A stretch of 64,000 bases of DNA from Cyanophora paradoxa CCMP329 (lineage: Eukaryota; Plantae; Glaucophyta). Each line of letters opens with the position of its first letter. Position 1 is the stretch's first letter. Positions 12,700 through 62,812 of this stretch are shown piece by piece. The notes beneath the pieces are model-generated. The model worked only from the letters and a program-made list of their open reading frames with translations, ran no database searches and was not told where the DNA came from. Location of the stretch: contig QPMI01000056.1 in assembly GCA_004431415.1 (NCBI GenBank), positions 248,001 through 312,000 of the forward strand. The letters run 5' to 3'. The translations under genes and the position numbers were made by a program.

Positions 12700-12920
12700 G
12701 CCTGTCAGGCTGTCAGCTAGCGCTGCGCAACTTGGCAAGTTTGCAACTCCCGAGTCCCGACTCTCCGAGTACTACGGTACGCGCAGCCAAACTTGAAAAC
12801 TCTAGTCTTGAATCAGATCTAGAAGAGAGCCGGATCAATATCTAGTTTCACGGCGGCGGTACATGTACAAGTACGTATACCGTAGTACTACGGTAACGAA
12901 TTCGAATATCGGATCATCGG

Positions 12921-25100: not shown

Positions 25101-28100
25101 CGCTCCACCGATCTGTTTGGCGATCGTGCACGTTGTCGAAGCGCCGAGACGACGGCGCTGGCTCTGGCAACTGATTGTGCCGCCTGCCCGTTTGGAATGA
25201 GAATCGATATCGAGCGCGGCCAAAACGCGCATAAAAACAACAATTTTATTACGTGCCTACTACTTGCAGGGGCGCAGGAGAGCCGCCGATGTGGCGCGTC
25301 TCGGGATCGATGGTCGAGGCATAGCGTACGGAAATGGTGGCAGCATTGCTGACACTGGCGACCGTGACCGTGAAACTGAACTGAGTCGAAGGCTGCGTCT
25401 GACTGACGTTTGACACACGCGCCGTGGTGACATTTCCAAACGCGTCCGTCGTGTTGACCTCGACGGTGGACTGTGCAATGGACACAAGCGGCGACACCGT
25501 TGCGACGCCCGCTGGTTGGACGCTCACCACTAGCTCCGATGCTGAGAAAAACAATTAAAAACCGGAAAATATGGGATTGAAAAACGCGAAAACGACGCGA
25601 GAGAGCACCTTCAAAATCAAGGGAGTTTGCGGCGCGCGAAATGAAGCAAGTGAAGGTTGTGCCGATGGGGGCGCGCGACGAGTTGCAGGAGAGAGATGCG
25701 GAGAGAACCTCAAGTGTCACAGGGTTCGAGACCAGCGAGCTCGCATTGTTCGTAGCTTGAACGCTCCATGGAACTGATATGTTAGGGTACAGGCTCTGTT
25801 CCGTGACCCGCGCCTCGAATTGCACAGACCCATCGCTAACCGCCGAGTAAGCAGTAAAGGTTGTGGTTGCAGGCTGCGCGATTGGCGATGAAAAATCCGA
25901 CGGGAGAAGAATGGGCCACGTTTCATTCGAGGCTGTAACTAGACACTGGAAGACTGCACCCAGGGCGCGGCGCCGCGGCGTGCACGCAACGCTGCCGTTA
26001 AGGGTTGCAATGGATGCGTTTCCGCTGGAGACAGTCACACTGCCATTCAGAACGCGACTTGAGTACATCACGCTGACCCAACTCTGACGGAAGGTCCCCG
26101 AAGCGGTGTAGTTGAAAGTGATTGTGCCGTCTGAGCCGTCAATGAGGTCCGTGACGGTGCCCGCCGACCAAAGGAGACCCCGGCTCCGACGCGTAGAATT
26201 CGAGTTCGAATCCGGGAGCGTTGGGTAGACAACTGGAGAGTCGAAATCGTCAATTTGGAGCGCCGGTGACTGTCCAATGCGTTCCAGGGTGCAAATGCCA
26301 GAGGACCCGAGCACACGACGCTCCGGGCAGGCAAGGCGGGCTCCGATCACATCGATGGGGAATTCCTTCATCTGACCGCCGCCAACAGAATCCGCCCACC
26401 GGACGGAAAGTTGTGCAGCGCCCTTGGGTGTGACTGCGTGTGCGGCAAATGTGATGTTGTCTTGCCCTCCAATGATTACTGGATCGACACTGAAAAAGTC
26501 GCCAACGGAGATCGCTCCCGTGAAGTCGCTATCAAAAACGGGAGGCGAGCTTGAGGCCAATGCCACTGAGCAGAGCACGGTAGCGCCTGGTGCGACGCGG
26601 ATTGGAGAGCATGACTCGATGTCAGCATGGACAACTGTGATGTCGTACGTGTTGGGAACGTCGCCGCCGCCGACCTTACCCGCCCACGCGGCGCTGACGG
26701 TTACATTTACGCCCAGAATTGATGCGTTCACGCCGATCGAAAGCTGCAGAAAGCGGATGCGTCTGATTTCAGCATCTCCCGGAATTGCATGTATATATGT
26801 ATACGAGTTTAAAGCACACCGATCCGGACTGGAGGGCAATGGGCATTGCGGGGTTGGGGAACTCGGAGATAAGTGCAGGCGTGCCAATGTCCTCAGGAAT
26901 AAGAGCAGATGACTGGGAGGCGCGCTCGATGGAGCAGCTGAGGGTGCTGTTGAGGCGGCGGCGCGTGTTGGGGCACTTCAGAGTTCCCCAGATGGCGGCA
27001 AACTGAGCATTTAGAGCCGAGGAATGGATGGGATAGAAGCCGCCGATCTCTGGAAAGCAGAAGGGACAACAGCATCATTCATATAAAACTCATTAGAAGG
27101 GCTAATTAGAAGAGAAAATAGCGCACCCGCATAATTAATGCTTACGAATCCGGTCGGGCCAGCAAGCGGAGCAGAGGGCAGCTGCAGAGATGTTATCAAA
27201 TCTCCTTCGGTCTCGTTTGAGGGCTCAAATTTCAGCTGCGAGAACTGTTTCGTTCTGTACATGTCATGCTCTGGTCAGATATTTCATATTCGTGCAGCAA
27301 TTGCAATCTATCAACATGCCGCACCCAATCCTGTAGACAGCGAAAAACATGTCCTCGACCTGAAGATCGGCCGAGTCGTTCGTCCGTTTTAGGATGCATT
27401 TGGCCGCCGAGCCCGCTAGTGTACGGGCGGCGCAGCTGAGCGAAGCGCCGATGAATCCCGGCTCGAAGAAGCCCAGAGGGCCGCCCCCGAGCTGCAAACC
27501 ATCGCGATCGTCACGGCCAGGCAAGAATGACAAGGTCAGCGACTTAAACAGCGCGAGAGATATATATAGCTCCTTGTTTTCGAAACGAACCGGGCCGCTG
27601 TAGTCAACGAGAATTACAGCGGGTCCCGGGCGCAAAACCGTCGCCTCAAAGCGCAGGCGCGACCCATCCTCCGGATCGACAGACACGGGGCCAAACTGCA
27701 AAGACTGGACGCTCCCGTTGGTCCGCGGCGGGCTCACGTCGTTCAGCTTGACGACGCTGGTCGAGACGCACGAAGCGACCATAATCTGGAAGCGTATTGG
27801 GGTAAGTACTTGCTGTTATTCATGCTCTCCCCGCAAGCGTTAGCCCACCGTGCAGCGGATTTTGTCGCTGACGGCACGCCGGCTGTAATCCGCTTCGCGG
27901 TCTTCATCGCATGTAAGGCGTGCATGAACAACATCGATGCCGACGGCTCCAACCTCGCCGCGACCGACCTTCGCTGAGTACAAAGCGACGTACCGGAACC
28001 TTGCACTAGAAATTGGTTAGCTCGCGATCGTAATATACGCATGAGCGGACTACTCATGAGCGCACTTGCAGCGGTTGTCTACGGGATAAGATTCGGTCGC

Positions 28101-31100
28101 ATAAAAGTCGAAAGCAATGCCGTCGCTCAAGACGGTAGAATTTCTGAGGCTGCACAAACGTGCATAAAGCGGCGTCAGGCAGCTGCAGGGTCAAAGTGCA
28201 CAGCGGATCCCGCATTGCAAGCGGCACCTAAGCGGCTCGGCAGTCTGGTCCACAAAGTCCGATCCCTACGCAAGACGAAAATTAATTTACGCGAAACGTA
28301 GAGTCTCGCGACGAGGTAGAGGCGCGCCTCGAGGGGTGCGGAGGCAGCGTCTTTGTAGATGGTGCAGCGCGCCATGCCGCCGATGCCCAAGCGCGTCGCG
28401 TTGCAGGCGATGGGGTTCGTCGAACGGACTTTAATGACAGAAATCTACCATATACATGAGATCAGTTTACATGAAATGAGGCTGTTTTGAATTCTGGGCG
28501 ACTCGTGCATACCGAAACGCCTTCGTCTATGTACGTGCGTGTGGCGACGAGGCCGGCATCGTAGTACGCCCGAACTACCGCCGAGCCAAGGGCTGTAGAC
28601 CGAACGGGGAAAGCGTAGCATTCCGAATCGTCCAGACTCAGACCCCGCGCGGCAACCGTCGATTCACCGAAGAAGTCAAGTACGTTTGTTCCGGACACGA
28701 GGAAGCCGCCGATGTCCTCGGGCATGGGCGTCGACCACGAGTTGTTACGGCAGACGCGGCATGTGATATCCATCGCGAGCCGCGTCCGCACCGCGGCACC
28801 AAAGGAGCCGGCAGGATCGCCGTCGCGCCGGCATTCTAGCTTGCCCGAGACATAAATGATATTCGTTGGGCTTGTCGTAGCAAGCGTGGTTGTGGACTCG
28901 TCGATGATGTCCGAGTAGGCAGCGGTGATTGTAGCGTCTTCGGAAATACAAATTGGCGAGTTCAGACTTGAAGAGCAAATAATTGAAATTATTACGCAGC
29001 TGAGCAAGCGTACCAGACAATGATTGCGAGACAGGAGGTGGGCTAAACTTGAAGCGGAGCACACGCACACCGCCAACGATTTCCTCAGTCGGTTCCGTAA
29101 CCTCACCAAGCGCACCGAAGTCGATGGTGAAGTCGCTTGAATTAAGCGCAGCGGAGCTACTCGAAGGCGTAAAGTCGCAGGTGAGATTCGTTCCTGGAAC
29201 GCGACGCCCGGGGTTCGTGCAGCTGAGAGATGCGTCGATGATGCTGACTTGCATGGTAGATACTGTGACATTGCGAATGCCATTGTCTGACGCAGAGACC
29301 GAGGTTCCAGACCAAACGATCTGCATGACATGGTTGGGTCGAAGAAAGAAGAGAGATTCATTCAGATCTAGAGACACAAAGCAAATATTCTAACCGCACC
29401 TGGAGCGAGTACTGACCGGCCTGTACCGCAGAGTGATCAATGTAAATAGTGGGCCAGTCGACCGACTTTATGTAGGCCGCGGACGGGGCGAGGAGCGCAA
29501 AATCATCCATTTGCAGAGGGCTGGAGGCTTCATCGGGATGAACAGCCTGGACGGTGCACGCTACTGGAGCGGATCGCGAGCGGCGGAGGGAATCGCATGT
29601 TGCGTTATGCTCGTCAATGATGTCGAAAGCGACGGATAGCGCCGAGTTTGCGGAGGCCGAAACGGCAGGGCCGTACAAGACGAGCAGCTCACATGGTGCA
29701 GCTCCGATGAGCCCTTGTGCGGTGAACTCAAACGTGAGCGTACCCGCCTCGGTGCCCGCAGAGAATCCGGAAACATTTGCGTCCGCAGACTCCGGCGACG
29801 CGCCGCAGGTCGTGCGATTAAAGCGGAGATCGGTTACAACAAGAGGTGCCGACCAGGCAGCCGGAAGAACAGAGCAGGTGACGGTCGTGCCCAACACCAC
29901 GCGACGGTTGCAAGTAATGCTGGATGTTTCCACAATTTCCACGAAAGCTGGCGACGACGAGCCTCCACCAAGGAGAGATGCCGTGATAGTCGTATTGCGT
30001 GAGCCTTTCGAGACGTAAACGATGCTCACGAGCGTTCCGTCGGCGCGCGACTCCCACGGCCCGAATTCAAGGGCTTCAGGCGTGCTTGTTGTGATGCCAA
30101 GGGCGACAACGGCGGGCAGCGGCACGCTCGAGCTGAGCACGCAGGTCATATTATTGCCGACGGCTATGCGCTTATCGCAGTTGAGGTTTGCGGCCATTTT
30201 GACGACGCTGACGTCAAATGGCACGACATGACCGCCGTCGGCCCAAGCGACCGAGATGCGCGACGGCTCTGCCAGCTCCAGAACGATGCAGCGACACGAA
30301 AAGCGGAAAAGGCCCGCCGACGCGTACTCCAGAGCGCCACAGTCTTGCGATACACCGTCCAGAACGAACGGTGCGCCAAAGACTGAGGTCGATGTCAGAG
30401 AAGCGCCGTGAGTCTGCTTCAATTCGCAGTTTGTCGTCTGATCGAATCCGACGGTGCTCAACGAGCAGGTGATGCTGAAGTCCACCGGTGCACTGCCCGT
30501 GTACACGGCTGTGTAGAGATCCTCACGACCCGCAATGGTCGACGAGTACAGGCCCTTGACCGAGAAGGCAGCTCCGTTTGCGCCTTGGAAGCCCGAAAGT
30601 GTGAAGTTGAACTGAGCAGGAATCAAATCAAGAGCTCGAGCGATCTCGATTCGTTTACGAGATTCAACAGTCCTATAGCTACATATGCCGTGCAAATGCG
30701 AGATAGAAACGCAAATACGAATGCGAACCTTGCCTGTGTCCGTCCATGCGGCGAACGATTCGGCAACAAGGCCCGCATTTGAAACGATGGGAGTCGTGGC
30801 GGAGAAGTCCGAGAGATCCAGATTGGAGGCGCCGGGTACAAGATGGCAGCGGGTCTGGCGCCGGCAGCGTTTGCACGTAAGTCCAACGAAAGCGGCTGAA
30901 TGTTTTAATTAGAATGCAAGGAAGCCGATTGAGCACCTCGCCAAACTTGTAGACCACGGGCGAGCACGTGACGGTAGCAGAGACGAGAGTAAGGTTGGTG
31001 CCCGGGCTCCGCACGTCGGCGGTGCCTGCAAGCTCCGCGCTCCACTTGGCCTGCACCGCCAATTCCGTGGGCAGCGAGGCCGACCCAACAGTGGCATTGA

Positions 31101-34100
31101 AGCCGAGTCCGTTACTAATCGTGGAAGACACGCTGATGGACGAGAACGAAATCCCCGATACGGCAATTGGCGTGACATCGGTTGCGCGGAGCTCCAGTGA
31201 CTCGCCAGCGGTTGCGAGTGTGCATCGCACGACCGAGCCAGAGGCAGCTCGGCTCCGGTCGCAGTTTGGCGCATCCAGAACCAAATGCACAACGTCCATA
31301 GAAAAGGCAGCGACTGGCTCATCGTCAGTAACCGTGTGCGTCGCCGCCCAACTGCGTGATAGAAATTGGTGTCCTATACCTCGCACGCTACACTTAAATG
31401 AAAGGATGGAGTACGCACTGCCCGGTTATAGCGTTCAATAGGTACTGACTCGATTCAGCGACCTTAGAGTCGAGCTGGATAGTCATCTGGCCGTTTGAAA
31501 CGGCTGGATTGGTTCCTGCTGAGTCCTTTGCAATTCTGTCCAACGGTATCTCATGCATGTGAGGCCCAAAAGAGGATGAAGAGTTTGCGCTTCGCACCGC
31601 TCGGTGTTTCCCCACACAAGACCCGCCGGAGCATCTTCAATATTCATATCGGCAATCGCCCCAGAGGGCCCCCACTGCGCTCGCCATGGCCAAGTTAGAT
31701 TCGAGAAATGCGCTTTTCGCTGATTAGAAATCAAGGGAATATTGTACTGTACTACATCGTCAAATGTAATCTCATATGCACACCTTGACCGTCAGAGCGA
31801 CAGAGCCGCCAGCTCCCTGCACGGATTTTGAATCGAGCCGATCAACCGCGCGTTCAGTTTAGTGGGATATTGCAACGTTTCATAATTGGGAATCGCTCAC
31901 CGCAGCAACTCTGCAAGCACCGCCGCTCGTCATTGAGGGGCACGTGTTCTCTGTAACTCGTTGAATAGTCGTAAGTGGTTGATTAGGATTAATCGCCGGT
32001 AACGCTGTGCACAGCTGTCAAGAACAAATTTCTGGTGATGGCGAACGAGACAAACGGCGCTCACTTCGGTCCAGTTTATACTGAACAAGAAGCTGAATTT
32101 GCTGCGACGCGTCGGAACCTATCCTCAGTTTCATGAGGACTCTTCCTGTCTCCGTTGCGTCTTCAGCGGACGTCGGTTCCATGTATGGATTAAGGATGAG
32201 CGAGTATGGGGCATCCGAAGGGATGACAAAGTCTCGGGCGCGGATCCAGGTTCCAGCCACCTACGTAGTTGGCCATTGAGTGGCCAGCCATTTAATGATA
32301 ACGAGCACCGCCTGTGCTTCACGCACCGGAGAGATGGCGATTATGACTGAACCGCCGACGACAAATTTGCCGTCGGCAGTGGGGTTCGGGTCCACAATTG
32401 CAATTGTTGCAGATGCCTCAAAGACGCGGAACGCGAAGCCACCAATGAGCGTCTGAGAACGCGGAACGAATATTTAATGCCATGCAACGATGGCGCTAGC
32501 CATATGTAGCATGCGCAGCAGGCCACGGGCAAGGCGCTGACCGTGTGTCGTGACTCGCGGGCATACCAATTCCGGCCCCGGTTGTAATCTTCATTGAGGC
32601 GGCTGTCATAATATGTATCATCGGCGCCTTCGGCAGTGATCGCGGCCGGCAAAACCCCCGTGTACTCAGTAAGACCGATGGAGTCGTCTGTATACAGGGC
32701 CGGATCGTAGAAGAGCCCCTGGAGGAAGGCGTTCAAGGCTTATCGATGATAAAACCTTTGTTCAACTTGACAGACTCACCCCAGACTTTTCATGTGACCA
32801 GCCAACCTTCACGAGCTCGTAGGGCCATGGCGTGTTCTCGGCATTGCAGCCGTAATACCTTTCGTCCGTGCACTTCGGCGTGTCTGAAGGAGTGGCTCGG
32901 AGGCCAGTAATGGAGAGTGTGGCACACGAGCCGCCGGGGACAGCCTCAGAGGTGAGACTCCAGTCAAGAGCCTTGCCCGAGCCGCCTCCCACAATGACGT
33001 CAAGATAGGTGTCGGGGATAATGGTGGCGCTGTTGTCCTTGGCGCAAATCCTGCCAGCGCGTCAACATTAACGTTAACGGTCTCAATGCGACTGAAATGC
33101 ATTGAGACTCTAGAACTCGATACTTTATAAATATAAGTAGTCGGGTCGCGCACTTGACTGGGATTGTAGAACCTTTAGGAATAGCAATCGTTCTCGTCTG
33201 ATCCCTACCGTCATTTCGATGTGTATTTGGCCAACCGTAGACGAGAGTTCTGAAAACATAGGTTTCCGTGCTTGTTCCATACGCATTCAGGTAGCTGTCT
33301 GGAATGCGAACATCGGCATCCACAACCTCAATGCTGAGAGTCTTGATAAACTGCTGATCCGTCGGGAAATTGATAAACCTACGACCAACCATTAATATTA
33401 GTATACGCATATATATCAGCTCAGCACTGCGCCGTGTCTCCAAAAAAATACCCGCGAAAAAATCAAAAACAAATCAGAAAACAAACCATTCCCAGTAACC
33501 CAATCTTGAATATCAGTAAATCTCAGTAAGCCTCAGTAAGAAACATTGAATTAATCGAAGTTATATCATAATCTCGATTAATTATATCTTATCGAAGTTA
33601 TATCTTTTTTATGCGCCGTGTCTCCAAAACAATTCCCAAGAAAAACAAACCATTCACAGTAACCCAATTCCAAATCTCACTAAATCTCAGTAAGCCTCAG
33701 TAACAAAAATCGAATTAATCGAAGTTATATCTTAAATCTTATTTATCGAAGTTATATCATAATCTCGATTAATTATATTTAATCGAAGTTATATCCTTTT
33801 CATCCGCCGTGTCTCCCATGAATAACTAAGTAAGTTTAGTTAAAACCTCGAAAGAAAACCTCTCATTTTTTACTGTATTTTTTGAACGATTTTTTACTGT
33901 ATTTGTTACACTAGAAACAACAATAGAAACGACAATAAAAACAATAGAATTTTAATTGTTTCTGAATCGTATATACGTCAATATATCACTGTAATATATA
34001 TCATATATATCATAGGAAATCGATTTATAGTCAAACCTATAACATATCAATTTGTGTATATGTGATATATATTCATATATGACGTCATGATGATGATGTA

Positions 34101-37100
34101 TATGTATCTGATATATATGACACACCGGCTTATTCGGGAGATCATGACGATCACGGCGATGTGTATATTGTCATGATGTATATGTATATATGTGTGACGC
34201 AATCTGATTGGTGTGCTATTTGTTTTGTTGTATCCCCCTTCAACTTCTCCCCAGGTTTATATCACAGATAACATCTCAGATAATACCTCAGATAATACCT
34301 CAGATAATACCTCAGATTATATCTCAGATAATACCTCAGATTATATCTCAGATAATACCTCATATATTAATTTTAAATTTGCTGGCTTCTGATTGGTTCA
34401 TGTCACAGAGTAGGGACTTTTCATCAAATGCGCCATAAAATGCGCCATAAAATGCGCCATAAAATGCGCCATTAAATGCGCCATTAAATGCGCCATTAAA
34501 TGCGCCATGAAAACCCGGGGAATAAACCATAGTAGGGTATATGATCTCACGGTTCAAGTTTCGCTCACGTTTCACCGAAGTTTCGGTAAATCGATTATCG
34601 GCATCTTCAAACGCTTGTATCTCATCACCAGATTATGATCTCGCAACGTTCTGCATATCGGTTTGAAGCGCTGTTTAAGCTCTACGCAACTGTGCAATCC
34701 CCACAGTATTTCAAGCTACCTTATTATACAACATTTCTCAAAAATCGACCTTTTACACACTGATTGTGGTCATTTCTCGCTGAATCCGAGCCATCTGACT
34801 CCTTTTAATTGCTTTTCTCTTCACAAACTTCTTAAAGCCCTTTATATCATCATCAGTGAGTACTGCTCTATCAGTATAGGTCTTGATATCATAACCTTGC
34901 AGGCTAGCTATGACAGTTTGGTAATTATAACCCCATAGTCTATGCAATTCCTTGTAGGTCTTCTTATCCAAACCACCATTGTACTCATCAAAGGCGCAAT
35001 TGAACTCTTTCTCGTTCCCAAGAATATTGAAAAATACAACGAACTCCACATTGCGACGAATGGTAGTAGAAATAGAACACAAACGCTGAACATTAAAGAT
35101 TACCGAGATTGAATAATGTCTTCCACTCGTTACTAATTTAGATAACACAGCCGAATTATGCATATCCAAATTTGAACCTATCATGTCATCGAGTATGATA
35201 ACTAGGTTATTTCGCTTTTCGTTATTCTCAATTCGTTTCTTTTGCATACTGATCAATCTCAAAACAATGTTATCATCCCACTCTTCATAGATGTTATCGG
35301 GATGGGTGATGTCATTGAATTGTCCAGTAAAAGCTGTTGAACTAAATATAACGATTTGATCGATCTTGTCACGAAGCTCGTAAAGTAAGTATTTTGTGAA
35401 CATTGTCTTACCTGTATTGGAGCGACCAACATTCAAAATTCTTGTCGGGATTCGAACCGTCTTACTCGGATCGAACTCCGGAATATCATCAAGATTTACT
35501 GTGTTATCCATTACAGTAATAAGATAAAAACAAAATAAAGTACACACCTACAAATAATTGCGCTTCCTACACTAACAAAAGAAAAGAACTTTAGAAGTTC
35601 GAGACTTTCAGGGTAGAGATGTTGTAGCCATTAAGTACCATAACATTGTGTCGGAGGGCATAGATATCAACCTGAACAGGAGCGGCATCAGTGCATCCGG
35701 AAACAGTGAGATCCATGTAACTCGAGCTGCTGTTGAAGAAATCCTGGTAACCCATAACCGAGTTCCGAAGCGAATCTTTTCCAGACTTGGAAAGAACAAT
35801 TCCGTAAACATTTCCAGACTCGAATCCGTACGTGGTATTGCCCACAGTAACACCCTTGTAGTGAGAAGGAATGTGATTGACAGCAGAGAGGAAACCGGAA
35901 ATGGGTTTGTTAGATATATCCAGGGAGCGATTGTTGTGGAAGATCTGGAACTGATCAATCTTAACAGCAGATTCATGACCGCAGAAATCCGAGTGAGTGT
36001 AGGTGTTAAGTTTGTTCACCTCTCGAACAGTCATCAGAATCGAGTGAACCAGACCAGAAACATTAGCGAGTGTAACCTCAACAGATTCACCAGCATCAGC
36101 GGTTTTGAGCGCTCGGGTCTTCTTGTGAATGACCTCTGTGATCGGGATGCGAATGCCACCTTGTTCGTTCGCCATTTTAAGGAGTGTCTCAGCCTCAGCC
36201 GAAGCAATGTTTACGAATTGGCAGATCAGAGAGCAATCCGCAAAGGTTACAGATCCACCAGCCGGAACTTGGACAATCGCAGCATCACGGAAATCAACCT
36301 CGATTGTTGGCATATCGGCTAGCGTACATAATGGGAAATAAGCTTCTTCCAGAAAGCAGCGGGGATTCTAACGATGTATTCCATTGCTTCATCTGTGCTT
36401 TCACGATCTGTCTCTTTGAAGTAACCGAGAGAAGCATACATGCTGCTCATGGTAGCGTGATCATTATCGACCAGGGCGTTTACAGTGATCCAATCACCAG
36501 GGATAATATACTTGAAACCACCATGAACGAAACGGACCTCATTAATAAAAGAAGAACCACCATTGGGAGGGTGCAGGCTACACCACCACCAGTGGCAATC
36601 TTGAAATAGAGCGAAACACCAGCAAGGAGTTGCTTGCGAGGTAGATCAAAGTAAGCGGTATTCTTGAAGCCAAAAGTGTTGCCCGGGGACGAACTTGCTC
36701 GAGGAATGGTTTGTATTTGGGGTTGGTTCCGATTTGGAGACCAGGGGAAAGATAAATTTGATCGGAACCGGGAGTTACGAGGAGTTCCTTCAGGGTAGTT
36801 CCAGTGAGTGCCATCTCTTATGTTTAAAATACCAAAAGAAATTTTAAAATGCTTTATTAAACAGAATGACGCGTTACTATCTCAATATTGATTCCAGGAC
36901 CGATCGGATGGAACCCCAACTAATTTCACATACAGACTCCCTTATGCGATCCAAAAGGTCAGAGCCTGTCGAGTAACGAACTTTGAGATGTTTCACAATC
37001 TTTACAACCTCTCTGAAGTAGGAACCCTCACCACACAAACACTCGATAATGCTGGGAACCCAAAGAATAGAAACAACGAAGTCCTCCGAGGTGCATATAC

Positions 37101-40100
37101 ACCGGATTCACTGGTGAATTATCTGATCGCTCGCATTGGATCCCAGCCCTATAATCAAGCGGGTGGCGGAACTTACACTCGCCATTTCTATGTAACCTAT
37201 GATCCCACAACATTGCTTCTAAGGTTCATGTGTGAGGTTCCATTCTCAATCACTATGAACACTCAACTCTTAGCCAATTTCTGTGGTTTTGAAAATGCTA
37301 ACACACTGTACCAATCGAGTCCTCTATCATCTAATGTCACAGTTGGAGCCTTTACTTATGCTCACTACATTGATAGTGAAATGCCATTAGATCTACTATT
37401 TAATTCCTATTTGCTTCTTCATGTTGATCCACTGAAAGGAAGATATGTGAGCAATAACAAACGAGATAACAATGCTATCGCGAAAATTGAGATTGACCAA
37501 ACGGTTGGCAGTCTATTAAAATATGATTCATCGAATAATTCCATGATCGTTCACGAGCAGAATGGCTTGGTTGAGGTTGAGACTCTAGATGTGAGACTTT
37601 CTTACTGGAATGGAGCCACAGCAGACATTACTACCGACTGGTCGATGACTCTTGAACTGATTACTGAAGATGATAAAGATCTGACGAAAAAAGCATTGAA
37701 GAATGTCATAAAAGAGTTGGAGGGACTCTACCTGCCGTTCTCACGGTCATAGGAAATACTGTAGAATAAATTTGTTTCAATATTACAAATGGCTCGCAAG
37801 ACTCAACCCAAGAATTTCTTAGCCAAACCAGCCGCTGAAGCGGATGTTGGCAATGGTGAGAATGGAAGGAACTGGTATAAGAAATCGAAAGGACTCGCTG
37901 CATACGGAACTGGTGACCTCGAAAAGGAAGTCCATAAAGAACGAAACCAATTCACCCAAGCCACTACGAAAAACAGTAATGATGATAATGCCCTTGTTGA
38001 CCAAGTCCCACTGAACCGCATGCCCGGAGCCAAACGAGGAATCAAGAAAGGACAGTTCAAATCATCCACAAAGGACAAGGTTGCCTCATCATCGACACTG
38101 CTGAAACTGCTTGATGGTGGTGAGCGACTCTACTCAACCTATTCCGAGAAAGACCATCGCAACCGCTACTTTATTCGTTCAACCACTGGTGGACTGAAAT
38201 CTGTAACATATCAGTATGCTAAGAGTCTTGTTGATGGTATTGCAGCAGAGACCAAAAACGAAAACAAGATCAAGGAACAGCCAATCACAAAGGAAAAGGT
38301 TGAGAAGAAACCAGAAGTAACCCATGAAGTTATTCCCGAACCTGTTCATGTGGCAAAAGACTCACCTACAGAATTGATTGCAAAGACCATTGAGTATCAA
38401 GACTCCAACAAAACGGATTTGCCGGTTCTCAATAAGTCGATCCTTCGGGTTGCCACTTCGCAGGCTGATCCAGTCAACTCGATTCCAAATGCTGCCCCAA
38501 TGGTCTCTGGATTCGCCAAGCTTGGTATAAGACCCGGTTATCGCCGTTAAGGATCAATCTGAATAATATAATTTCTCAAACATTGTTAGCGCTACGTAAC
38601 CAATCCTATCCCGTAGGCTCAAAACTTCTTCATTTTTATGGAGGCGTTGTAGAGCGAAGTGAAATATCCATAGGTAAATCACTTTAATCACCTGTTCTAC
38701 CGGGTTCAGTGGTAGAAACTTGCAGCCGACAAGTGAACCTTCTGGGTATCGGTGGCTTTATCATTTTTCCAGCATCTTCTTTCGTACTGGATGCTCTGCA
38801 ATCGGGACCAAAATTTGACAGGAGTTTATTCGCTATATACAGACAGAAAAACTACTTAAAGATTTCTTAACATATATTAAGAGAGTAGAAAAGGACAACA
38901 TGCCAATCAGTGAGGCTCAGAAGCGTGCTACTTATCGTTATCGTAAAACTGAAAAAGGTCAGGAATATTTGAAAAAGTACAATGCCAGATTTGCAAAGCA
39001 AATGCGTGACTTATACCATACTGATGAGTGTTACAGAGCCATGAAGATCGTTGAGAGTTCCCAGCGTCTCTATGCTTCCAATGCAGTCTGCTTTGTGAAG
39101 TATCTCTATGGTGTCCCGTATTCTAACCGTGGTCGCAAATCGAAATATCTCTGTTAATCGTTTTTCTCAGCGCGATCTGCTCTGAGAAACCCGTGGGAAA
39201 CGCGCTGGAACCACAAATATAATCATTCTGTTATTTTTAGAGTTCGATGATCGAGCCAACCCTTTGTTATTTTTATGAATGCCCTCGACTAAATTTATTT
39301 TGTTGGAGACTTTTGGTTTTGTCGGTAAAATTTGACGCGAGTATAAAAGTATTTAAAGAAAACTTTTGTAGGTTTTTTTTGCAAAAGCCCAACCGGGCAA
39401 TGTTCGTATTAAGGACAACAACCGCCGCCCCGTCGGTGACGTCGACCGGGGGGGCGCCTAGGCTAGCGCAAATGCTCTGCGGCATAGAAGGAAGACGTCC
39501 TGCTATCTTATCCTAGCTGTGAGCTATCGATCTACAGCTTTAGGAGGGCCTGATGCGTTGGTGTCCTTGGCCCTGTGGAAGAGAGGGGGGAGGGGGAGGC
39601 GAGGCGCACGGGGTGCTGGGGGTCGGCGGGGGCGAGGCGTAGGGAGGGGAGAAGGGCAGGGAGTGGGGTACACGGAGCGCTGGAGGGTGGCGGGGTGAGG
39701 CGCTGGGGTCGGGGAGCTGGGGGCGGGCGGGCGGGGCGGGCGGGGAGGGTGACGGGCCGGGAGCGGGGCGGGGCGCCGAGGGTCGGGGCAGGGCGCTAGA
39801 GGGCGGCGGGGGCGGGGCGCTGGGGGCGGCGGGGGCGGGGCGCTGGGGGGCCGGGGCAAAGGGCGGGGGCTAAGGGGTGGAGGAGCACTGGGGGCGGGGC
39901 CCTGGGGAAGCGGCGGCGGAAGGGCGCTGGGGGCGGAGGGGCGCCGGGGGCGACGGGGGAAGGGCACGGGGAGCAGCGGGGCACTAGGGCGGCGGGGCGC
40001 TGAGAGGGGTGACGTGGGAAGGGCACTGGGGGGCGGCGGGGCGCTGGGGCGACGGGGAAGGGCGCGAGGGAGCGGCGGGGCGCTAGGGCGGCGGGGCACT

Positions 40101-43100
40101 TAGAGGGTGGCGGGGGCGGGGCGCTGGAGCCGGAGGGCGGGGGCGGGCGCTGGAGCTGGGGGCGGGGCGGGCGCTGGAGCCGGAGGGCGGGGCGGGCGCT
40201 GGAGCTGGGGGCGGGGCGGGCGCTGGAGCTGGGGGCGGGGCGGGGCGCTGGAGCCGGAGGCGGGGGCGGGGCGCTGGAGCTGGGGGCGGGGCGGGGCGCT
40301 GGAGCTGGGGGCGGGGCGGGGCGCTGGAGCCGGAGGGCGGGGGCGGGGCGCTGGAGCCGGAGGGCGGGGGCGGGCGCTGGAGCTGGGGGCGGGGCGGGGC
40401 GCTGGAGCTGGGGGCGGGGGCGGGCGCTGGAGCCGGAGGCGGGGGCGGGGCGCTGGAGCCGGAGGCGGGGGCGGGGCGCTGGAGCCGGAGGCGGGGCGGG
40501 GCGCTGGAGCCGGAGGCGGGGCGGGGCGCTGGAGCCGGAGGGCGGGGGCGGGGCGCTGGAGCTGGGGGCGGGGGCGGGGCGCTGGAGCTGGGGGGCGGGG
40601 CGGGGCGCTGGAGCCGGAGGGCGGGGCGGGCGCTGGAGCTGGGGGGCGGGGGCGGGCGCTGGGTGGGGGCGGGGCGGGCGCTGGAGCTGGGGGCGGGGGC
40701 GGGGCGCTGGAGCTGGGGGGCGGGGGCGGGGCGCTGGAGCCGGAGGGCGGGGGCGGGGCGCTGGAGCCGGAGGGCGGGGGCGGGGCGCTGGAGCCGGAGG
40801 GCGGGGGCGGGGCGCTGAAGCGGGAGGGCAGGGGCCGGCTTGAAGGCCGGGTCCGGGCGGGCCTCGTCTGGCTCGGACTGCGGACGGGGGGGCAGGGGGT
40901 CCGAGCGTACACGCTTCTGTACCGGCCTCGGGGGGGGAGGAGTCCAGGTGGGCGCCCTTTGGGCCCAGTCCGGGGGAAAGGGGGCGGGGGCGTGGGCCCG
41001 CGGGGCCTGGGCGCCGGCGAGCGTCGCGCAAGCACGGTCTACGTCGTTCGCCGGGCATGGCGGCGACATCCGGTGTGTCGTCCGTGGATGATCGGCTCAT
41101 GTCTGCGGTGTGACAGGCAGTGAGTGAGTGTCAGCATCGGGGCGCAATGCGCGGGGACTGGGCGGCAGTTCAGTTGCTTAAGAGCTCTTATCGTCTATCG
41201 GGAGAGGCAGGGCGATTGCTTTGCGCTCCGCGCAGGGCGCAGGTGGGGTCCGGGGGTCCGTGGAATTCAAAAAAGATGACGCGGCGAGGTTGGCGGGGCT
41301 GCCTGGCGCTCCGGGGCGGGCTACCGACTTCGGCGGTTGCGATTGGTGATGATGTGCTCGTGTCGGCTGTCCGTGCACGCCCGGCTGGTCTATCTAGCGC
41401 GTTCTGGCTACGGGGGTCGGGTGGAGCTGGCGCGCGACTTTCCGAGCAGCTTGACACGCAGCGTTATCAGGAACCCACGGGTGGGAAACCTGGCCCGCTG
41501 CGCCGCCGTAATCGTCGCGCTACCGTAAATTTTCCGTACCCCCCCTTCCAAAACTTTTGTAGGTATATATTAATAGAGTGAACAAAGAAATGCCTCGACC
41601 AAGTAATCGAATTTCGAAAAATTTGCAGGATGAGATTCTTGGCTACTACATGCAAGCAAAAGTAGAAGACAAATTGACCCGAGAGCAGGATATCTATTTC
41701 TTGAGAGAATTTACTTTCAAAGCAATTAGAATTCCAAAGTTGATTGATATCAGAGATACACTGAGAGGTATCGTAGAGCCTCGTTTGTATCGCAAGCAGG
41801 AGAAGAAGGAGAAGAGGGCTGAGAGAGCCGCTAAGAATGTTGAGAAGCAAAACAAGAAAGCGGAGCAAGCGAGAGAGCGGAAGCGCTTGACTCCTTTCCA
41901 GCAGATGATTGCTAACCTCCGTGAGTTTGTTGAAAACTCACCTGGAAACATGGTCACCCTGAATGTGAGACTCTTCCGTGAGTTGCAAGAGGGAGAACAA
42001 GCCCCTGCAAATGCAAACAGGGTCACTGAGAATGGTGTGACCTACATTGAATCGAAGAGGCTTCGGAACAATCGCCCCTTTGGTATCCAGTGTACCAAGG
42101 CAGCTTTTCTGAATGCTCTCGGTCTGGTTCAATCCACCTTCAATACGTTCCCATGTGTTGAGGGGACTGTCATTGCTGAATTTATTGCAGCAGTTATTGA
42201 GTTTAACTCGACCAATCAAGATTTCCGCTACCTAAAACTAATTGAGCAAGATACCTACCCCGATATTATGACAATTGAAAGAGTCATCACGACAGATAAT
42301 GAAGAATACATCCCAAGAAATGAACAAGTCCTCAGAGACAATACAAACGCTCCAATGATTATTTCGAATTTCATTAAAAACGAAGGGAACCCCCAAGCCA
42401 CCACATTCAAGGAAATGTTCTTGAAAGGTGATTCATTCAAGGTTGGAAGTGTGTTTTCGATGTCCTCATCAAATGGTTTGGAGGAGCGTTTGAGAAGGCT
42501 AAGACCAAAGGGAAATACAAGCGAATCGATTGGTCTTACAACGGACTCTTTAAGATGGTGAATGGGCGAGACCCTGTTGAAGGAGATGATTGGGGCATTT
42601 CTTTCAAGTCCATTTCGGAGAAGGTTCTTGACCCACTGCGCCTAGGCATGGTTACAATTGGAAAGGACGACAGAACCCCTGTCCCTGAACTGACTTTCCT
42701 GCCCAAGACCAGGAACACACACTTGACCCCTTCTGTTGCATATGTGAAGATTGAGAATGGTCACATGTATTTGTTAAATCACAATATTAAGGCTCTCACA
42801 CAGTCCTTCAATGGCTCCAAGCCAAAAGATACCAATGTTCCACTCAGTTCTCGTTACAAGATTATAAAGCAAAGAAGGTTCAAGGAGTTTGCCACAAATC
42901 CCGATGACATTCTGAGAATTGTCAGGTCTGACAATTCAAAGAACCAATCGAGCATTCGAATCTGCTATGGTGGTTCACTGGATGAACTACTCAGAGAGTT
43001 CATTGTGGTGCATAATTATCAGGTCCAACCTGGGTTCTCCCAAATCGGAAAGGCAACCCATATTCGTTTCACTATTGACGATAAGGATGTTGTCGTGACC

Positions 43101-46100
43101 CCACCTGGTAACGATACAGATGTGGAAACAGCTTTCGAGATTAGCTTCAAGAATGCTGAGTACAGAGATAAATTCGAGAAACTAAATCTGGATATGTATA
43201 GGTCTCTAATCAACACTTCCAACAAGAGTACTTACAATGAGCAAACCATAAATGCATTCAAGAATGGAGTGCAGACTGCCCTTCGTGGTCTCTTTGATGT
43301 GGATGAGGAGACCTTTGATGAAATTCGCTATAACACAGATATTTACGAGTTCGATATGTGCAAAGCATACCCTTACATTGTAGCCTTGATGATCAAATTC
43401 GTTCCTGTTCTCAGCAAGTTCGATGTCTTCAAGAGTGTGACAATCACAGATGCAGAGCAAATCGAGGAATACAGCTTCTATTACGTGAAACTGGACGACA
43501 AATACTTTTTCAAAGCCAAAGACAAGAACGGAAAGGAGTACGAAGCAAACACCTACAACAGATACAAGAGGATGATCATTGATTCCAAGTACAATGTCGT
43601 TCCTGGTTTGGTTCTCAAAAAGCATTTCGAGGATTTCAAGGATGACATCTCCATCAAAGCGGTTCTGCGACCTTACAAACTCATTCCCAACCTTGCAGGC
43701 AACACAGTTGCTCGAATCTTAGATAGCGACCTCGATCCTGTTGATAAGAAGCAGATCTTGGTGAGTGCAATTGGGCAAACTGGAAAGCAACGAAATAGCA
43801 GAGTGAAAACCACCATTTTCCACAACAGAGACGATGCGATCGAGTTCCAGAAACAGAACGGAGGGGAGGTTAAAATTTACCTCTTTGGTGAGACTCTTGC
43901 CACTTATGAGGAGACAGAGTTCGTTCTGTGTGAGGAAGAGATGACCGAACCCCATATCTACTATGTCAATCAGGTAGCAGAAAAGCAGCTCATTGATGGC
44001 TTCATGCCATTGTACACTACCCTCTTGTCAATTATGAGGATGTGTATGTATGAGAAGTGTGTCGAACTCGCTAAACAGCAGATCCGACCACTCGCTTTGA
44101 ACACCGATTGTGTTTATGGGATCGCTTATGAACCCATTGCCCCAGTGTCATTCGATCGCAATGCCTTTGAGAATATTGGAAAATTCAGTGTGAAATGCTG
44201 CCCCAATTTTTCTAAAAAGTTTTCAGGTGAGAAGAAAGACCTCGAGGCAAAACGAATTCGTTACGGAAAGTTTGAGAGAGCGACTGACTTTGTGAAAATC
44301 GAGAACTACAGTTATACCAAACACTCTGTGGTTGATGAGTATGACACAACCGCGATTTGTGATTTGCTGGCTACACAAAAACGATGGGTTCTTCTCGGAT
44401 CAGTTCCAGGAGTTGGAAAGACTCACATGACAGTTGAATATGGGAAGCGTTTCAAAAATCCCCTCTATATTGTTCCGACCAACAAGCGAGTGAAGGAAAT
44501 GAAAGAGCAAGGATTGAAAAATGTGAAGACAATCTATGATGCCCTTCATCTCAAAATCGATGAGTCGAACATGGATGAAATCGTAGGAGGGAATGCATCT
44601 GGTTTGGTAGAATTTGATTGCATTGTTATTGATGAGATCTGTCAGTTTAAGATTGGAGAACTGGCAGCCCTGGACCACATCATGAATGAGCAGTTCCCAG
44701 ATAAGGTATACATTGCCACAGGTGACCCGTATCAGAACCCACCCATTCAGGATATGAGTGTTGATCAAGATGAGTATTACCTTGATATCCTCCATCGCCT
44801 GTTCCCCAACGAATTGTTACTCCAAGTGAACAAGCGCCATGAGACTGAGGAAGATCGCAGAAAGGTTGAGCAAATTCGAATTGATTTATTCGAGAAAGGT
44901 TTGAGTGTAAGTGAGGTCCTAGCAAAGTACGGTTCAAGGTTGTGGACGAATTGGCAAAGACAGATAAAGGCATTGTGTATACAAACCGCAAGGGTGCAGA
45001 GGTGAACCTAGCCCTTCACAAAATGAACTACGGGGATAATGTTTCCATTTATGCTGGCGGGATCAAAGTTGTTGCAAAGACTCGTATTGCAAAGGGTGGG
45101 AAGATAGTTCATAATGGATTTGTCTACAAGATTGTCAAGCTCTCAAAGGACAGTTTCATTATTGCTGACATTGCCAACAAGAAGGATGAGATTGTTCTCA
45201 GCAGGGATGCAGTCAAACATTTCGCCCTGGCTTACGCAAACACCTGCCATGTTGTTCAAGGTGATACGATTCGCTGCAAAGGGAACAGGGTAGTCGTGTT
45301 CGAAACTGGGGCGCCATTTGTTTCAAAGAAGTGGCTATATGTTGCTCTCACTCGAACCACAAGGCTGGATGATGTTGTTATTTACCATGATAATTTCGAA
45401 ATGGCTCACTGGAAAGTGTGGAAAAGAGAGAATAACGAGAAGATTTCGACTTACAAGGATCAGGACCGAGCAGCAAACAGACAATTCGATGAGCATGATT
45501 ACATCACATGGGATTGGATCAAGCAGCGATATGGGAAGCAGTATGGGCATTGCCTGCGATGCTACAATGCCATGGACTTTGAAGATATTTCGGTAGATCG
45601 AATTAATAATGCTGTGGCTCACATTACCAAAAATTGTTTCCTCTCTCATATTAAGTGTAACTGTGCCGCCCAATAATGGATAGTGTATTATCATTCAAAA
45701 AGTATAGGCAGAAACTGATTAATGAAAAAGTGAGTTTTGATGAAAAAGAGTTGAAAAAGAAGTTCAAAAACTCAGAACTCCAGCAAATTTACAAGAAACC
45801 AAGGAAACCCAAATCGTTTCTTCGCATAGTGGCAAAGCCTAGATCGTTTCAAATCGATATAACATATTTCAGAGGGTTTCAGACTGCCAACAATGGCATT
45901 TTCAAAATGCTTAGTTTCGTAGACATACTTAGTCGCAAAGGATTTGTTTATCCTTTTAAAAACAGCAGTGAGATCCGAGCATTTTAAATAGGTTCAAGCA
46001 AGAAGCAGGCAAAGTTAATGCTCTCTCTGGGGATAATGAGTTTTCCCAGGCAGTATACCGAAATTGGTGCAGTGAACATGGTGTAATGCTATACACAGAT

Positions 46101-49100
46101 GTGGCAAAGGATGACCACATCACAGTAGGAGATAAACTGGGGATAATTGATAGGTTCACTAGGACTTTCAAACAGTATCTCAGAAAATCGATGACAGCAA
46201 AGGGAACCACGAAATGGATCGATCTACTTAGTGATGTAATTGACTTGTATAATAGCAGTCCCCATTCTGCATTGAAAAATGACTCTCCAAATGCAGTGTA
46301 TACAAATGAAGATAAACAGTTATTTATTTACATGAGGGATACTGTTCACAACAATCGTGTAAAGGAGGCTGATACTAATCAAGTGAAACCAGGAGACACA
46401 GTTCGAGTTTTGCAACCAAAGGGATTGTTTGAAAAAGAAGGTGCGCAATTCAGTCAGAAGGTCTACACTGTTGCAAAGGCTGATAGGAATCGTTTCAAAG
46501 TGCTTGAAGATAATGATGGTGAGGAAACAAAAGAAGTGAAGAGGAGATTTAAGAAACAAGAATTGCAAAAGGTGAATAAAGATGATATCATTAAGATACC
46601 ATCACAAAAACGGATTCAGCAGGTTAATAAAACGAATAAAGTGAATCGATTGGTAGCAAAAGAAGGCATAAAACCCAATCGGAGTAATGTAATTCGGAGG
46701 AGATACAATTTGAGAAGTGGTTTAACGAAACGCTAAATCATGGAGACACGGCGGATGAAAAGGATATAACTTCGATTAAATATAATTAATCGAGATTATG
46801 ATATAACTTCGATAAATAAGATTTAAGATATAACTTCGATTAATTCGATTTTTGTTACTGAGGCTTACTGAGATTTAGTGAGATTTGGAATTGGGTTACT
46901 GTGAATGGTTTGTTTTTCTTGGGAATTGTTTTGGAGACACGGCGCATAAAAAAGATATAACTTCGATAAGATATAATTAATCGAGATTATGATATAACTT
47001 CGATTAATTCAATGTTTCTTACTGAGGCTTACTGAGATTTACTGATATTCAAGATTGGGTTACTGGGAATGGTTTGTTTTCTGATTTGTTTTTGATTTTT
47101 TCGCGGGTATTTTTTTGGAGACACGGCGCAGTGATCAATATTCACAGCATCCAGATTAAATAATATATATAGATCACAAACCGGAGGCTAAAGTTGAAGA
47201 CAGGAGACATAGGATCGTTCCCTACAGAAAGCATTGCAGTTTGCTATCAAGCGCATGCGCGCGCTCAGTCAACAGGACATATGCACATGTACAAATTCGC
47301 GCTCGAGCGCGCGTAGCGCACCCTGGTACGTGCCGCGCGCCCTTGGATCCACTGGCAGGAAAACCAGTCAGCATACGCAGAGAAGAGCTGAAAGACATGA
47401 CCAAAGCTGGGCGTGGCAGGAACCTCGATATTGAGCCCTCGTCCCTCCCCCGACAGGTCGTCTCCAAGGGAAGAAACGACGTCAACGTTTCTGAGCTTGG
47501 TTTGGTCGAGTTTTCGCTGAACTTCGCAGCGATCTTCCTCTCCCTCCCCGAAAACCATGCGTTTGCAGTTGACGTAGCTGTCTTCATAGTAGATCTCTCG
47601 AAGGTCTGTCCGTCGCGATATTCAAAGAAGGTTCTTTCTAAATTTGTAATATGCGTCAGCGGATTCGAACCTGTGGCATAAATTCCCTCGCTTGTTTCCG
47701 TCATGTATAGGTCGCAGCGGGCCTTGTACGACCCGGCAGCAAGAACGCGCGGCGTGCAGGTAATTTTCGAAGTGTCATCCAGCGTCAAAAAGCTGAACTG
47801 GAAGGGCGTCTGCCCTGTCTTCTGCGTGCCGACACGCGCGTATCCTGAGACCTCCGTCGGTTTGCCGACGTCATAGTTAATTTTGATGCCCATGTCGGTG
47901 CGTGTGCTGGTCGGGTTGCTCGGCGCAGTATAGCTGCGCGTGGGAGAATGTAAATATCGGCAGATATCTGCGGAGACCTAGATATATCTGGCATGCGCAC
48001 GTAAAGGCATAGGTGTCATAGCATCCAGTGGAGCATATTTCAGTGCCGTCGGTTCTGGCTTGGAATGGCTCAGGATATCCGTCCGGTACCAGAGGCGAAA
48101 GAGTTCCAAGCGCGGGCGGCTCAATCAAGAAGTTGCTCTCCGCCAGGCGCGGACTCCGCGAGTGGCGAGTCAGCGTGCAACGAACCAGTGCACCCGCTGC
48201 ACAATGCGGCAGATGCCTTAAATTAGCGATCGCCTGGAGAGCGAATGCATCTAAAAGAACTCGAGAAAGCGCACGACGAGTGCGGTATACGCCGTCAGCG
48301 CCTTGGGACGGGTTATAGATGTACGGAAAGTCGCCTGATCGTAGCCACATTAATCAGGTGCGAACAAAGATATGATAAGCAAACAGTGGTACTGCAGCCG
48401 GCTCACAGTTCACATTGTAGTCAAGGAACGATTGGAAGGTAGCGTTCCAGAGTGTGCGCACAATGTTCTCCCGCTTCTCGTCGCGGAAGCCAATTGGGAC
48501 CGCAAGTATTGGGACAAGTAGTCTTTAAGCTGCTTAAGCTTTGCTCGTTTCAGCCAAGTCATGCTCATGATACATATTCCCACTAGACGTCGACGGCCAC
48601 GTACACAGATGATTATAAAATTTCATAAGAGACTGCAGCCGCGCGCACCCGAACGTTATAGGAGCTGTCGTGACCGTCGGTCGCAACCTGCAAATGCACT
48701 TTAGACCATTTAGACATGCAGGCAGATCTTCAAATTGCTTTCTAATACATCATCAAAACCGTAACAGAGAACTGGCCATCCAATAAGAAGCTGTGTTCGT
48801 GCTCGTGTCCCTTCGAGCTCTGTTCCCGATGTACATCTTTGCGCTGCCCTCGGAGCCATGGCCAGTATCTTCGAGCTCTGTAATGTTGAAGGGCTCGGCT
48901 GCCGCGATAGCATCAGTCATGATTAATTCTCTATATATAACTAAGACAACAAAGTTCCGCGGCTAGTCCACGTTATCTTGGGAAACGCACTGATTGCAAC
49001 GAAGTCCATCTCATAGTCGTTGAATTCCACGTAATCAGATTCGGCAGCAGGTTCTACAAATACATTAGAACTCAAATAAATGTTAAACTGCTGCTGCCGA

Positions 49101-61010: not shown

Positions 61011-61092
61011 AATATTAAATAGTGGAGCTGTGAGCCTGCAGGCTGCAGCTGTGAGCCTGTGACTGCAGCCTGCAGGTGCACAACGGTTGACA

Positions 61093-61340
61093 TACCGTGT
61101 AACACTTAATTAATGCGCCAGAAATTAATGCGTTTTTGGACCCGGACCCCTAGTGTGGATATAAATGCGGCACCAAATTAATGCGTTTTGAAGCTTTCTG
61201 TCTGCGTTAGGGGGGTACATCATGGCATACCGCAGTTTTCTTAGCGTTTCGATCGCGATATTAATGTGGTCCCGAATTAATGCGTTTTGCCAGCGAAAAC
61301 GCATTAATTACGGGGCGCATTACTTAAGTTTTACACGGTA
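61093..61340. mobile_element. MITE with 25-bp TIRs and TA target duplication
   Basis: TA-ccgtgtaacacttaattaatgcgcc ... ggcgcattacttaagttttacacgg-TA (2 mismatches). Internal aattaatgcg repeats. Confidence 0.85.
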
Positions 61341-62540
61341 CTACTAGTAGTACACTGCCGCAGCTAGCCTAGTAGCCTACTAGGCTAGTAGCTATAGCGC
61401 TGCAGACTGCACTGTCACAGTGTCACTGCAGTGCTTCCAAGTTCCGAAGTTCCAGCCAGTGCCAGCACTGCCAGGATGCACGCTCAGCGGCTACACTACT
61501 ACTGCAGTACAAGTTACTGTAGGACGGCTTTTTTAGCCGTAGTTTTAAATTGCCGTAAAGTTTGGGTTCGCCCGACTTCGTCGTAGCTAGTAGAGATCCA
61601 TCCCATGATTATCATCAATGATTCATCATAGCATGATCATGACTCATGATTCATGACATGTACTATATTAGCTAGCCCCATGATGATGGCATGCCATGAT
61701 GATGACAGTCACAGACTCTGAGATAGCGCGGCTTAGCGCTAGCGGCTGTCAGTGCCTGTCACTAGCCTGTCACTGCTGTCAGTGCCCCATCAATGGGGCC
61801 ATCATGGCATGCTACTACTACGTATATACTGTAGCCTGTAGGTGTAGTTATTTAGCCGTTGCGTTTGCGAGTTGGCGATTCCCCACTGGGCCAGCAGCAT
61901 CGGCCAATCAAGGAGTAAAGCTTTTTGAGAGTGATTCGAATTCGGGTAATATTCAAGACCCCAAAATAATTAGTAATCCTGGGGCTCGGCCTGTTTAGTT
62001 ACCTTTAGTAGCCTAGTAGCCTAGTAATAAAACTTTAGTACCTCGGGTTTAGTAATAAGTAGCCTAGTAGCCTACCTCGGGTTTAGTATACGATAAAACT
62101 TTAGTAATCGGGCCTCCGATCCAGATCTAGAACGTAGAACTATAAAAATCCAGTATACAAAATATTTCCCGACTTACAGTAGGCTACTGCAGCAGTACTA
62201 GTACTAGTACAGTAGTAGTACTGCCGAATCATGGCCGATTCGATCCCAGAGCCCCGTTGCTGCAAGCCTAGGCTGCCTAGCAACTTGGCAACTTGCTGGC
62301 AAACGTTTTTTTTAACTTGCCAAGTTGCTGCCCAACTTCAGCACTGCGGCAGCCGAGTCGACGTCTGCGGAGCTAGGCCTGCGGACCCAGGCTGCGGTGC
62401 CCCAGGGGCCAGACTGGCAGACTAGTGGCAGTCACCCGGTGACCAGTGCCACGCTGGCACGGTGAGTCACCAATGACTCACCAGTGAGTCACCACTGACT
62501 CGCCACTGATCATGAGTCACCAGCCTGACACCAGGCCTAC

Positions 62541-62812
62541 TACCGTGTGGCACTAAAATACCGCGGCATAAATTACCGCGTTAGAAACTCCGGCCCGAGG
62601 GTGGCCAAAATACCGCGGTACCAAATTACCGCGTTTTAAAAAACTGGAGGCTTGTATGGGGCGGTAATATTAATTAGGGGGGGTACTGTATAAAGCGACT
62701 TGCCTGCAGCTTAATACCGCGGTACCAAATTACCGCGTTTTAATAAATTCTCGGCGCGGTAATTTGGTACCGCGGTAATTAAGTGGGCGCGGTATTATAG
62801 TGCCACACGGTA
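62541..62812. mobile_element. MITE with 23-bp TIRs and TA target duplication
   Basis: TA-ccgtgtggcactaaaataccgcg ... cgcggtattatagtgccacacgg-TA (1 mismatch). Internal aaattaccgcg repeats. Confidence 0.85.

Follow-up and report, generated by a model that had tools for sequence, protein, structure and literature searches.

Proteins termed Tlr1-like helicases were described from Polinton-like viruses (PLVs) in 2016 as proteins of 1000–1400 residues that carry the palm of a protein-primed DNA polymerase (pDNAP), a superfamily 1 (SF1) helicase and a C-terminal HNH domain, with no exonuclease (PMC5499653). In 2024, they were given the order terminal protein (TP), viral OTU-like protease (vOTU), palm and SF1 helicase (TP-vOTU-PALM-S1H), followed by a C-terminal HNH or GIY-YIG domain, and the name pPolB-S1H (PMC11161782). 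This second paper reports loss of the exonuclease and of the first Asp of motif C, and predicts both activity and self-processing. Here we analysed 64,000 nucleotides of Cyanophora paradoxa CCMP329 DNA (contig QPMI01000056.1, positions 248,001 to 312,000 of the forward strand; the window, whose own numbering is used throughout), and found that a replicase gene within it encodes a divergent new member of the pPolB-S1H family. An earlier note, made from the letters of the window, had offered the five-part architecture of this protein as a possible novelty; it had already been published in the two papers above.

The protein resembles described pPolB-S1H proteins (PMC5499653, PMC11161782) in its size, in the order TP-like domain, vOTU, palm, SF1 helicase and HNH, in the intact vOTU Cys/His pair, in lacking Exo motifs and the first Asp of motif C, and in its Pif1-related helicase. 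As with their elements, the DNA that carries it is linear, with terminal inverted repeats (TIRs) and a morphogenetic module. With good confidence, we take this element to be an integrated, likely multi-copy PLV in a eukaryote chromosome, and we consider it probable that the gene is its single replication gene, whose product likely uses protein priming at the TIRs to copy the linear genome once this is excised. The gene and the domains of its product are as follows.

41590..45676, + strand: pPolB-S1H ('Tlr1-like helicase') gene, 1362 codons; the assembly is one base short at each of two places, behind 42444 and behind 44930
41590..41934, + strand: basic, predicted helical N-terminal extension (residues 1–115), poorly conserved
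41935..42294, + strand: putative terminal protein, α/β domain (residues 116–235), from a profile and a homologue model
42355..42788, + strand: vOTU cysteine protease domain (residues ~256–400), spanning the first break
42867..43208, + strand: likely exonuclease-fold remnant without conserved catalytic carboxylates (residues ~427–540)
43209..44255, + strand: palm of a protein-primed family B polymerase (residues ~541–890), with motifs A, B and C
44361..45397, + strand: SF1B (Pif1/RecD/Dda-like) helicase (residues ~925–1270), spanning the second break
45428..45673, + strand: zinc-binding HNH (ββα-metal) nuclease domain of the DR...H...N...N type (residues 1281–1362)

A single replicase gene

As assembled, the window holds three overlapping plus-strand open reading frames (ORFs; 41590–42561, 42432–45005 and 44915–45676), which the earlier note had joined into one gene, naming accurate reads that show three genes as the finding that would speak against this. 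Short-read contigs from four of four public runs compared carry one extra base at both breaks: at 42444 it is present at full depth in three runs and in 1868 of 2234 in the fourth, and at 44929–44930 at full depth in all four, counting two variant contigs of run X1. With an X placed at both breaks, the frame is open over 1362 residues with no internal stop, the motifs named in the note fall where it had put them (Cys288 at 42450, His392 at 42762, and the PolB, SF1 and C-terminal motifs), and the gene is collinear with homologues of ~1200–1400 residues.

That the locus instead comprises three separate genes, a truly broken gene or programmed frameshifts is very improbable. The three ORFs are there in the window as assembled, and short-read contigs collapse copies, so the state of this single copy is not provable from them. 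Against this, both breaks fall within domains (OTU and helicase), the homologues are single proteins, and other genes of the element show similar shortfalls: one-base differences are also found in the capsid, integrase and neighbouring genes (three DNA runs), and homopolymer runs of 2–5 bases adjoin all nine breaks checked across the element. A one-base shortfall beside a homopolymer is the usual error of long reads.

We considered 40 rows of variants (of these 40 and 46 more) and removed four that lie upstream of the ATG and two at a break. Of the 34 replicase variants that remain, 31 affect third codon positions and 30 leave the amino acid unchanged, which argues for selection on the protein, its N-terminus included, and indicates that the gene is under purifying selection.

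Homologues and structure model

A full HMMER search with residues 287–1138 as the query found 491 proteins at E ≤ 0.001. Many of the 150 listed are ~1200–1400 residues long, with one continuous match that starts at their residues 250–330, and from these 150 we aligned the 109 homologues of 1150–1500 residues. Over the whole length, none of these 109, all taken from the matches listed, is more than 22% identical to the window protein. All 109 keep Cys288, His392, Asp589, Lys721, Gly729, Asp840, the Walker GK, Glu1016 and Gln1049, and the same motif set is present in 95 of them. Both protein ends, the N-terminal region and the HNH domain, lie outside the search query. Structural statements below refer to a model of one homologue (P0061, residues 1–860).

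Domain organisation of the replicase

The N-terminal region was compared with a profile of 103 homologue N-termini from which the query was excluded. Residues 1–115 score 6.6 bits, within the range of shuffles (maximum 12.5), and the extension mostly has a pLDDT below 50 in the model, while residues 116–285 score 49.1 bits (best of 199 reported shuffles, 11.1). Model residues 121–220 form a confident α/β domain (strands and helices 125–220); a structural search with the 860-residue model gave no match identifying a terminal-protein domain. PRD1-like terminal proteins have their linking Ser or Tyr close to a Gly or Pro, within the loop that connects helix 2 to the last strand (PMC11161782). The matching three-residue span holds Ser or Tyr in 93 of the 103 homologues, top of 160 such spans (median 25), and in the window protein reads Thr222-Tyr223-Pro224, making Tyr223 (42256), which would stand before the last strand and adjoins Pro224, a candidate linking residue.

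The OTU fold is present in the model, and the vOTU domain, with its catalytic residues Cys288 and His392, lies next to the polymerase part, as in the rest of the family. Self-processing by the vOTU has been proposed (PMC11161782).

Model residues 428–841 superpose on residues 5–500 of phi29 polymerase, with 350–361 residues aligned. At least 43–54 of these must lie upstream of residue 535, because only 307 model residues span 535–841, and the stretch of ~110 residues that separates the OTU from the palm overlays the phi29 exonuclease region. Several RNA-primed polymerases likewise align from model residues 422–431, and such positions in polymerase chains belong to the exonuclease domain. The segment itself is kept in all 109 homologues, with no invariant Asp or Glu column between His392 and Asp589 in that alignment. 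The proofreading motifs are therefore missing, and the model suggests that the replicase likely retains part of the exonuclease fold. Canonical Polintons have a full pPolB with Exo I–III motifs, whereas this protein has no conserved Exo carboxylates and, like its family, no catalytic exonuclease domain. In the available text of PMC11161782, an exonuclease remnant is mentioned for mavirus only.

The palm carries motif A with Asp589 (DMCKAYP, 43353), motif B with Lys721 and Gly729 (KQILVSAIG, 43749) and Val725 in the place of Asn, and motif C of the form xTD with Asp840 (NTDC, 44100). In structural matching, phi29 polymerase outranks the RNA-primed enzymes, and the model shows folded insertions on both sides of motif B, one side being the interval from motif A. 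Within motif B (43749–43775), Val replaces Asn in 7 of the 109 homologues as well, and Leu, Cys or Glu does so in 4 more.

The helicase shows the SF1 motifs GVGKT (44409), PTNK, DEI, GDPYQ, KR, TCHVVQG and ALTR, and matches the Pfam families AAA_19, AAA_30, Viral_helicase1 and UvrD_C_2. The best matches of the family profile in the Protein Data Bank (PDB), at E 3e-16 to 3e-5, fall in this region; they include RecD, Dda, TraI and Pif1 and point to the SF1B class; a single protein of 1000–1400 residues with a C-terminal SF1B helicase is also what characterises the family. SF1B helicases are described as moving 5'-3' (PMC5499653), and from its class this one probably does so too.

The C-terminal domain keeps His1345 and Asn1349 in 95 of the 109 homologues. 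PHROG endonuclease VII is matched by 16 of 17 aligned members (best E 2.5e-12); the HNH piece of the window protein itself gave no match to it at E ≤ 0.01. In the PDB, the domain weakly matches PacI and the HNH domains of two Cas9 proteins (E 0.26–2.3; PacI 2.3). Aligned with PacI, it shares the DR pair and has its invariant His opposite Tyr100, which we take to be the general base of PacI. The general base of that enzyme is a tyrosine (PMC4081073). One homologue (P0092, residues 1323–1403) ends in GIY-YIG instead of HNH, like the Tlr1 protein, and several others end right after the helicase.

The OTU-like protease, the PolB palm with its altered motifs, the SF1 helicase with a complete motif set and the CxxC-DRxxN-H-N-HxxCN domain, here assigned to HNH, were thus all read correctly in the earlier note, the missing motif-B Tyr and motif-C Asp being traits of the family. 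Three of its points hold in part. Its 'exonuclease-less' polymerase does lack the catalytic motifs, but retains the match to the exonuclease region in the homologue model. Its ~285-residue N-terminal region exists, but the OTU fold already starts at about residue 256, which puts ~30 residues of the OTU within that region and the first break within the OTU domain. Its terminal protein is plausible, given where the domain lies, its secondary structure and the conserved Ser/Tyr loop; because the span was picked once the model was in hand and no fold match identified the domain, the TP and its linking residue stay putative.

A proposed replication mechanism

Our proposal starts from the gene, its domain order, its conserved catalytic residues and its viral context, which are observed, and from the OTU and phi29-like folds of the homologue model; every enzymatic step, the TP role and the helicase polarity are what we infer. 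The N-terminal α/β domain would act as terminal protein, with a hydroxyl residue (candidate Tyr223) taking the first nucleotide, which the phi29-type palm would extend without proofreading. The fused SF1B helicase, probably 5'-3', would unwind the duplex and compensate for the missing thumb. The Cys288/His392 pair of the vOTU may cut the terminal protein off the remaining polyprotein, and the nuclease at the C-terminus would probably act by nicking branched intermediates or by trimming ends.

Several points weigh against this reading. The first Asp of motif C is found in none of the 109 homologues, the motif-B Tyr is missing from the family, and the motif-B Asn, kept in 98 of 109, is Val here. 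The useful structure model is of a protein ~22% identical to the window protein, whose own piece, folded alone, reached a pLDDT of 31. The invariance of OTU, palm and N-terminal helicase is partly selected for, because the search query covered them. The linking-residue loop was chosen after inspection of the model, and spans over a conserved Tyr at homologue residues 252–254 reach 87–89 of 103. Such palms were read as inactive in 2016 (PMC5499653), the palm is still called inactive in a preprint (bioRxiv 10.1101/2025.10.09.676808), and the papers that define the family, in their available text, give predictions only (PMC5499653, PMC11161782). From the motif changes, and from a phi29 match that stops at phi29 residue 500 with the helicase following directly and no room for a thumb, one could conclude, as PMC5499653 argues, that the palm has no catalytic activity and serves the helicase as a scaffold for DNA binding or as an aid to processivity, with a host or giant-virus polymerase copying the genome. 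We think this unlikely, since Asp589, Lys721 and Asp840 are invariant despite 20–30% overall identity, active polymerases without the same Asp are listed in PMC11161782, and a terminal-protein-like domain with an intact protease makes most sense beside an active polymerase.

An active replicase would still leave room for other roles at its flanks. The vOTU might mainly be a deubiquitinase directed at host defences, with no processing of its own polyprotein: its structural matches are mostly deubiquitinases, and viral OTUs do both jobs (PMC11161782). In every homologue, however, the vOTU immediately follows the putative terminal protein, and in adenovirids, which encode the terminal protein in a gene of its own, it is reported to be inactivated (PMC11161782); we regard a mainly defensive protease as unlikely. 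The case is closer for the HNH domain, which PMC5499653 and PMC11161782 read as a homing endonuclease; that it is a selfish addition to the gene with no replication role has, in our view, a little less than an even chance. The domain is exchangeable, 12 of the 109 homologues having neither His nor Tyr at the His1345 column and one having GIY-YIG, but His1345 and Asn1349 persist in 95 of the 109 divergent homologues though the region lay outside the query, and the best PHROG family is of the resolvase type. Homing endonucleases also usually decay after fixation. We offer as a doubtful, joint proposition that the nuclease contributes to the work of the replisome rather than being a homing passenger and that pPolB-S1H and mavirus share a dead exonuclease remnant. 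If so, the nuclease would be of the PacI/endonuclease VII type with its invariant His at the PacI tyrosine position, and would resolve branched intermediates or free DNA ends of their terminal protein ahead of integration, a removal that PMC11161782 calls unexplained; the mavirus-like remnant would point to one shared loss of proofreading, as against the two independent losses proposed in 2024.

The element and its surroundings

The element measures 13.7 kb at ~40% GC, between flanks of 53–56% GC, and has the following further features.

33425..33816, no strand: left TIR, 392 bp, 100% complementary to the right arm
34753..35511, − strand: A32-like genome packaging ATPase (Pfam Pox_A32, E 1.3e-15)
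35591..36881, − strand: likely double jelly-roll capsid gene, 5' end approximate, with single-base breaks
36988..37752, + strand: ORF, possible minor capsid protein (a guess from position), no Pfam match
39374..41549, no strand: GC-rich insertion (77%) of 2.2 kb, nested within the element 25 bases ahead of the replicase ATG
45676..46736, + strand: rve-like integrase (Pfam rve_3, E 0.004, short of the curated cut-off)
46742..47133, no strand: right TIR, 392 bp, perfect complement of the left arm

It thus has the traits of a PLV: it is linear, with TIRs, an A32 ATPase and a double jelly-roll capsid, the last by Atlas feature similarity only (a 240-residue C-terminal piece scores 0.96–0.97 in ESM Atlas features to Capsid_NCLDV clusters, a score of low recognition value). 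The integrase has one single-base break, behind 45974; it is open over 353 codons with X, and the extra base is present in all four runs. The ORF at 36988..37752 lengthens 5' to ~300 residues if read with X at 36896.

Both TIR/flank junctions agree with short-read contigs with no differences. Each TIR (ends at 33425 and 47133, reading CACTG...CAGTG) contains a 94-bp direct repeat (33478–33735; 46823–47080) at 164-bp spacing and 88% identity, a possible replication-initiation binding array. No target-site duplication was found among direct repeats of 4–12 bases abutting the TIRs at offsets up to 3 bases, although the element encodes an rve-like integrase. Two 12-bp tandem arrays lie within the element (34265–34366, 8.5 copies; 34422–34512, 7.6 copies), and contigs that skip this region suggest that it varies between copies.

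Mean depth of long contigs over the replicase gene is 2070, 915 and 39 in three runs, and that of flank contigs 115–136, 40–43 and 3.4–3.7 in the same runs; gene against flank depth suggests ~10–20 element copies, depth itself being no copy number. The nested insertion has a 15-bp target-site duplication (39359–39373 and 41550–41564); there is a short stretch of T at its left end, and a 25-bp unit is repeated 28 times in tandem within it. Contigs join 39358 to 41550 in all three DNA runs at a depth close to that of the gene, so the dominant form lacks the insertion, which is missing from most element copies; it is likely a host mobile repeat that parts the replicase gene of this copy from its upstream DNA.

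Outside the element, related palindrome-rich repeats at 11600–12700 and 61090–62750, ~49 kb apart and partly mutually inverted, roughly enclose a ~55% GC region, unlike the very GC-rich left end; a larger mobile element is one possible reading, a set of non-autonomous repeats another. Long minus-strand ORFs at 19000–33400, beside the viral insertion, include one REJ domain (E 7e-6) and one weak TIG match, and look like a large surface-protein gene in pieces.

Comparison with known systems

The 2016 and 2024 papers disagree on palm activity (PMC5499653, PMC11161782), and in the literature searched no pPolB-S1H protein had been tested biochemically. The element described here is small, apparently present in many copies and from an organism with many public DNA runs, and its gene is under purifying selection; it is therefore a usable candidate for testing protein priming, self-cleavage and the role of the nuclease. 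Four minor additions of ours merit a check: the remnant of the exonuclease fold, the tyrosine proposed for linking, the type of nuclease and the altered motif B. Unlike most of the 109 homologues, the window protein has Val for the motif-B Asn and His as one HNH zinc ligand, the latter shared with 1 of the 109. The exonuclease-fold remnant of the homologue model differs from the available text of PMC5499653 and PMC11161782, where the domain is lacking, though their figures may show more.

Among other systems, Tetrahymena Tlr1 likewise has a pPolB-S1H beside rve integrase and capsid genes; by description, its protein differs in a GIY-YIG end and in a domain at the TP position that is reported as unique (PMC11161782). 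The endogenous, TIR-bounded pMVREs of groups 2 and 3 are also similar, many having a truncated pPolB-SF1 helicase fusion, and complete pMVREs commonly carry RVE and MCP domains (PMC13215967). The mavirus pPolB (TP-vOTU-PALM) is, like this one, truncated with an exonuclease remnant (PMC11161782), and the homologue model matches it (Foldseek E 9.5e-9 over 642 columns), but mavirus has a separate SF3 helicase and neither a fused SF1 helicase nor HNH. Finally, the OmPLV SF1H-pPolB of Oxyrrhis marina also joins helicase and pPolB in one ~1500-residue protein of an endogenous PLV, but with the helicase first, a complete exonuclease and, in the available text, no TP or vOTU assigned (PMC12721341).

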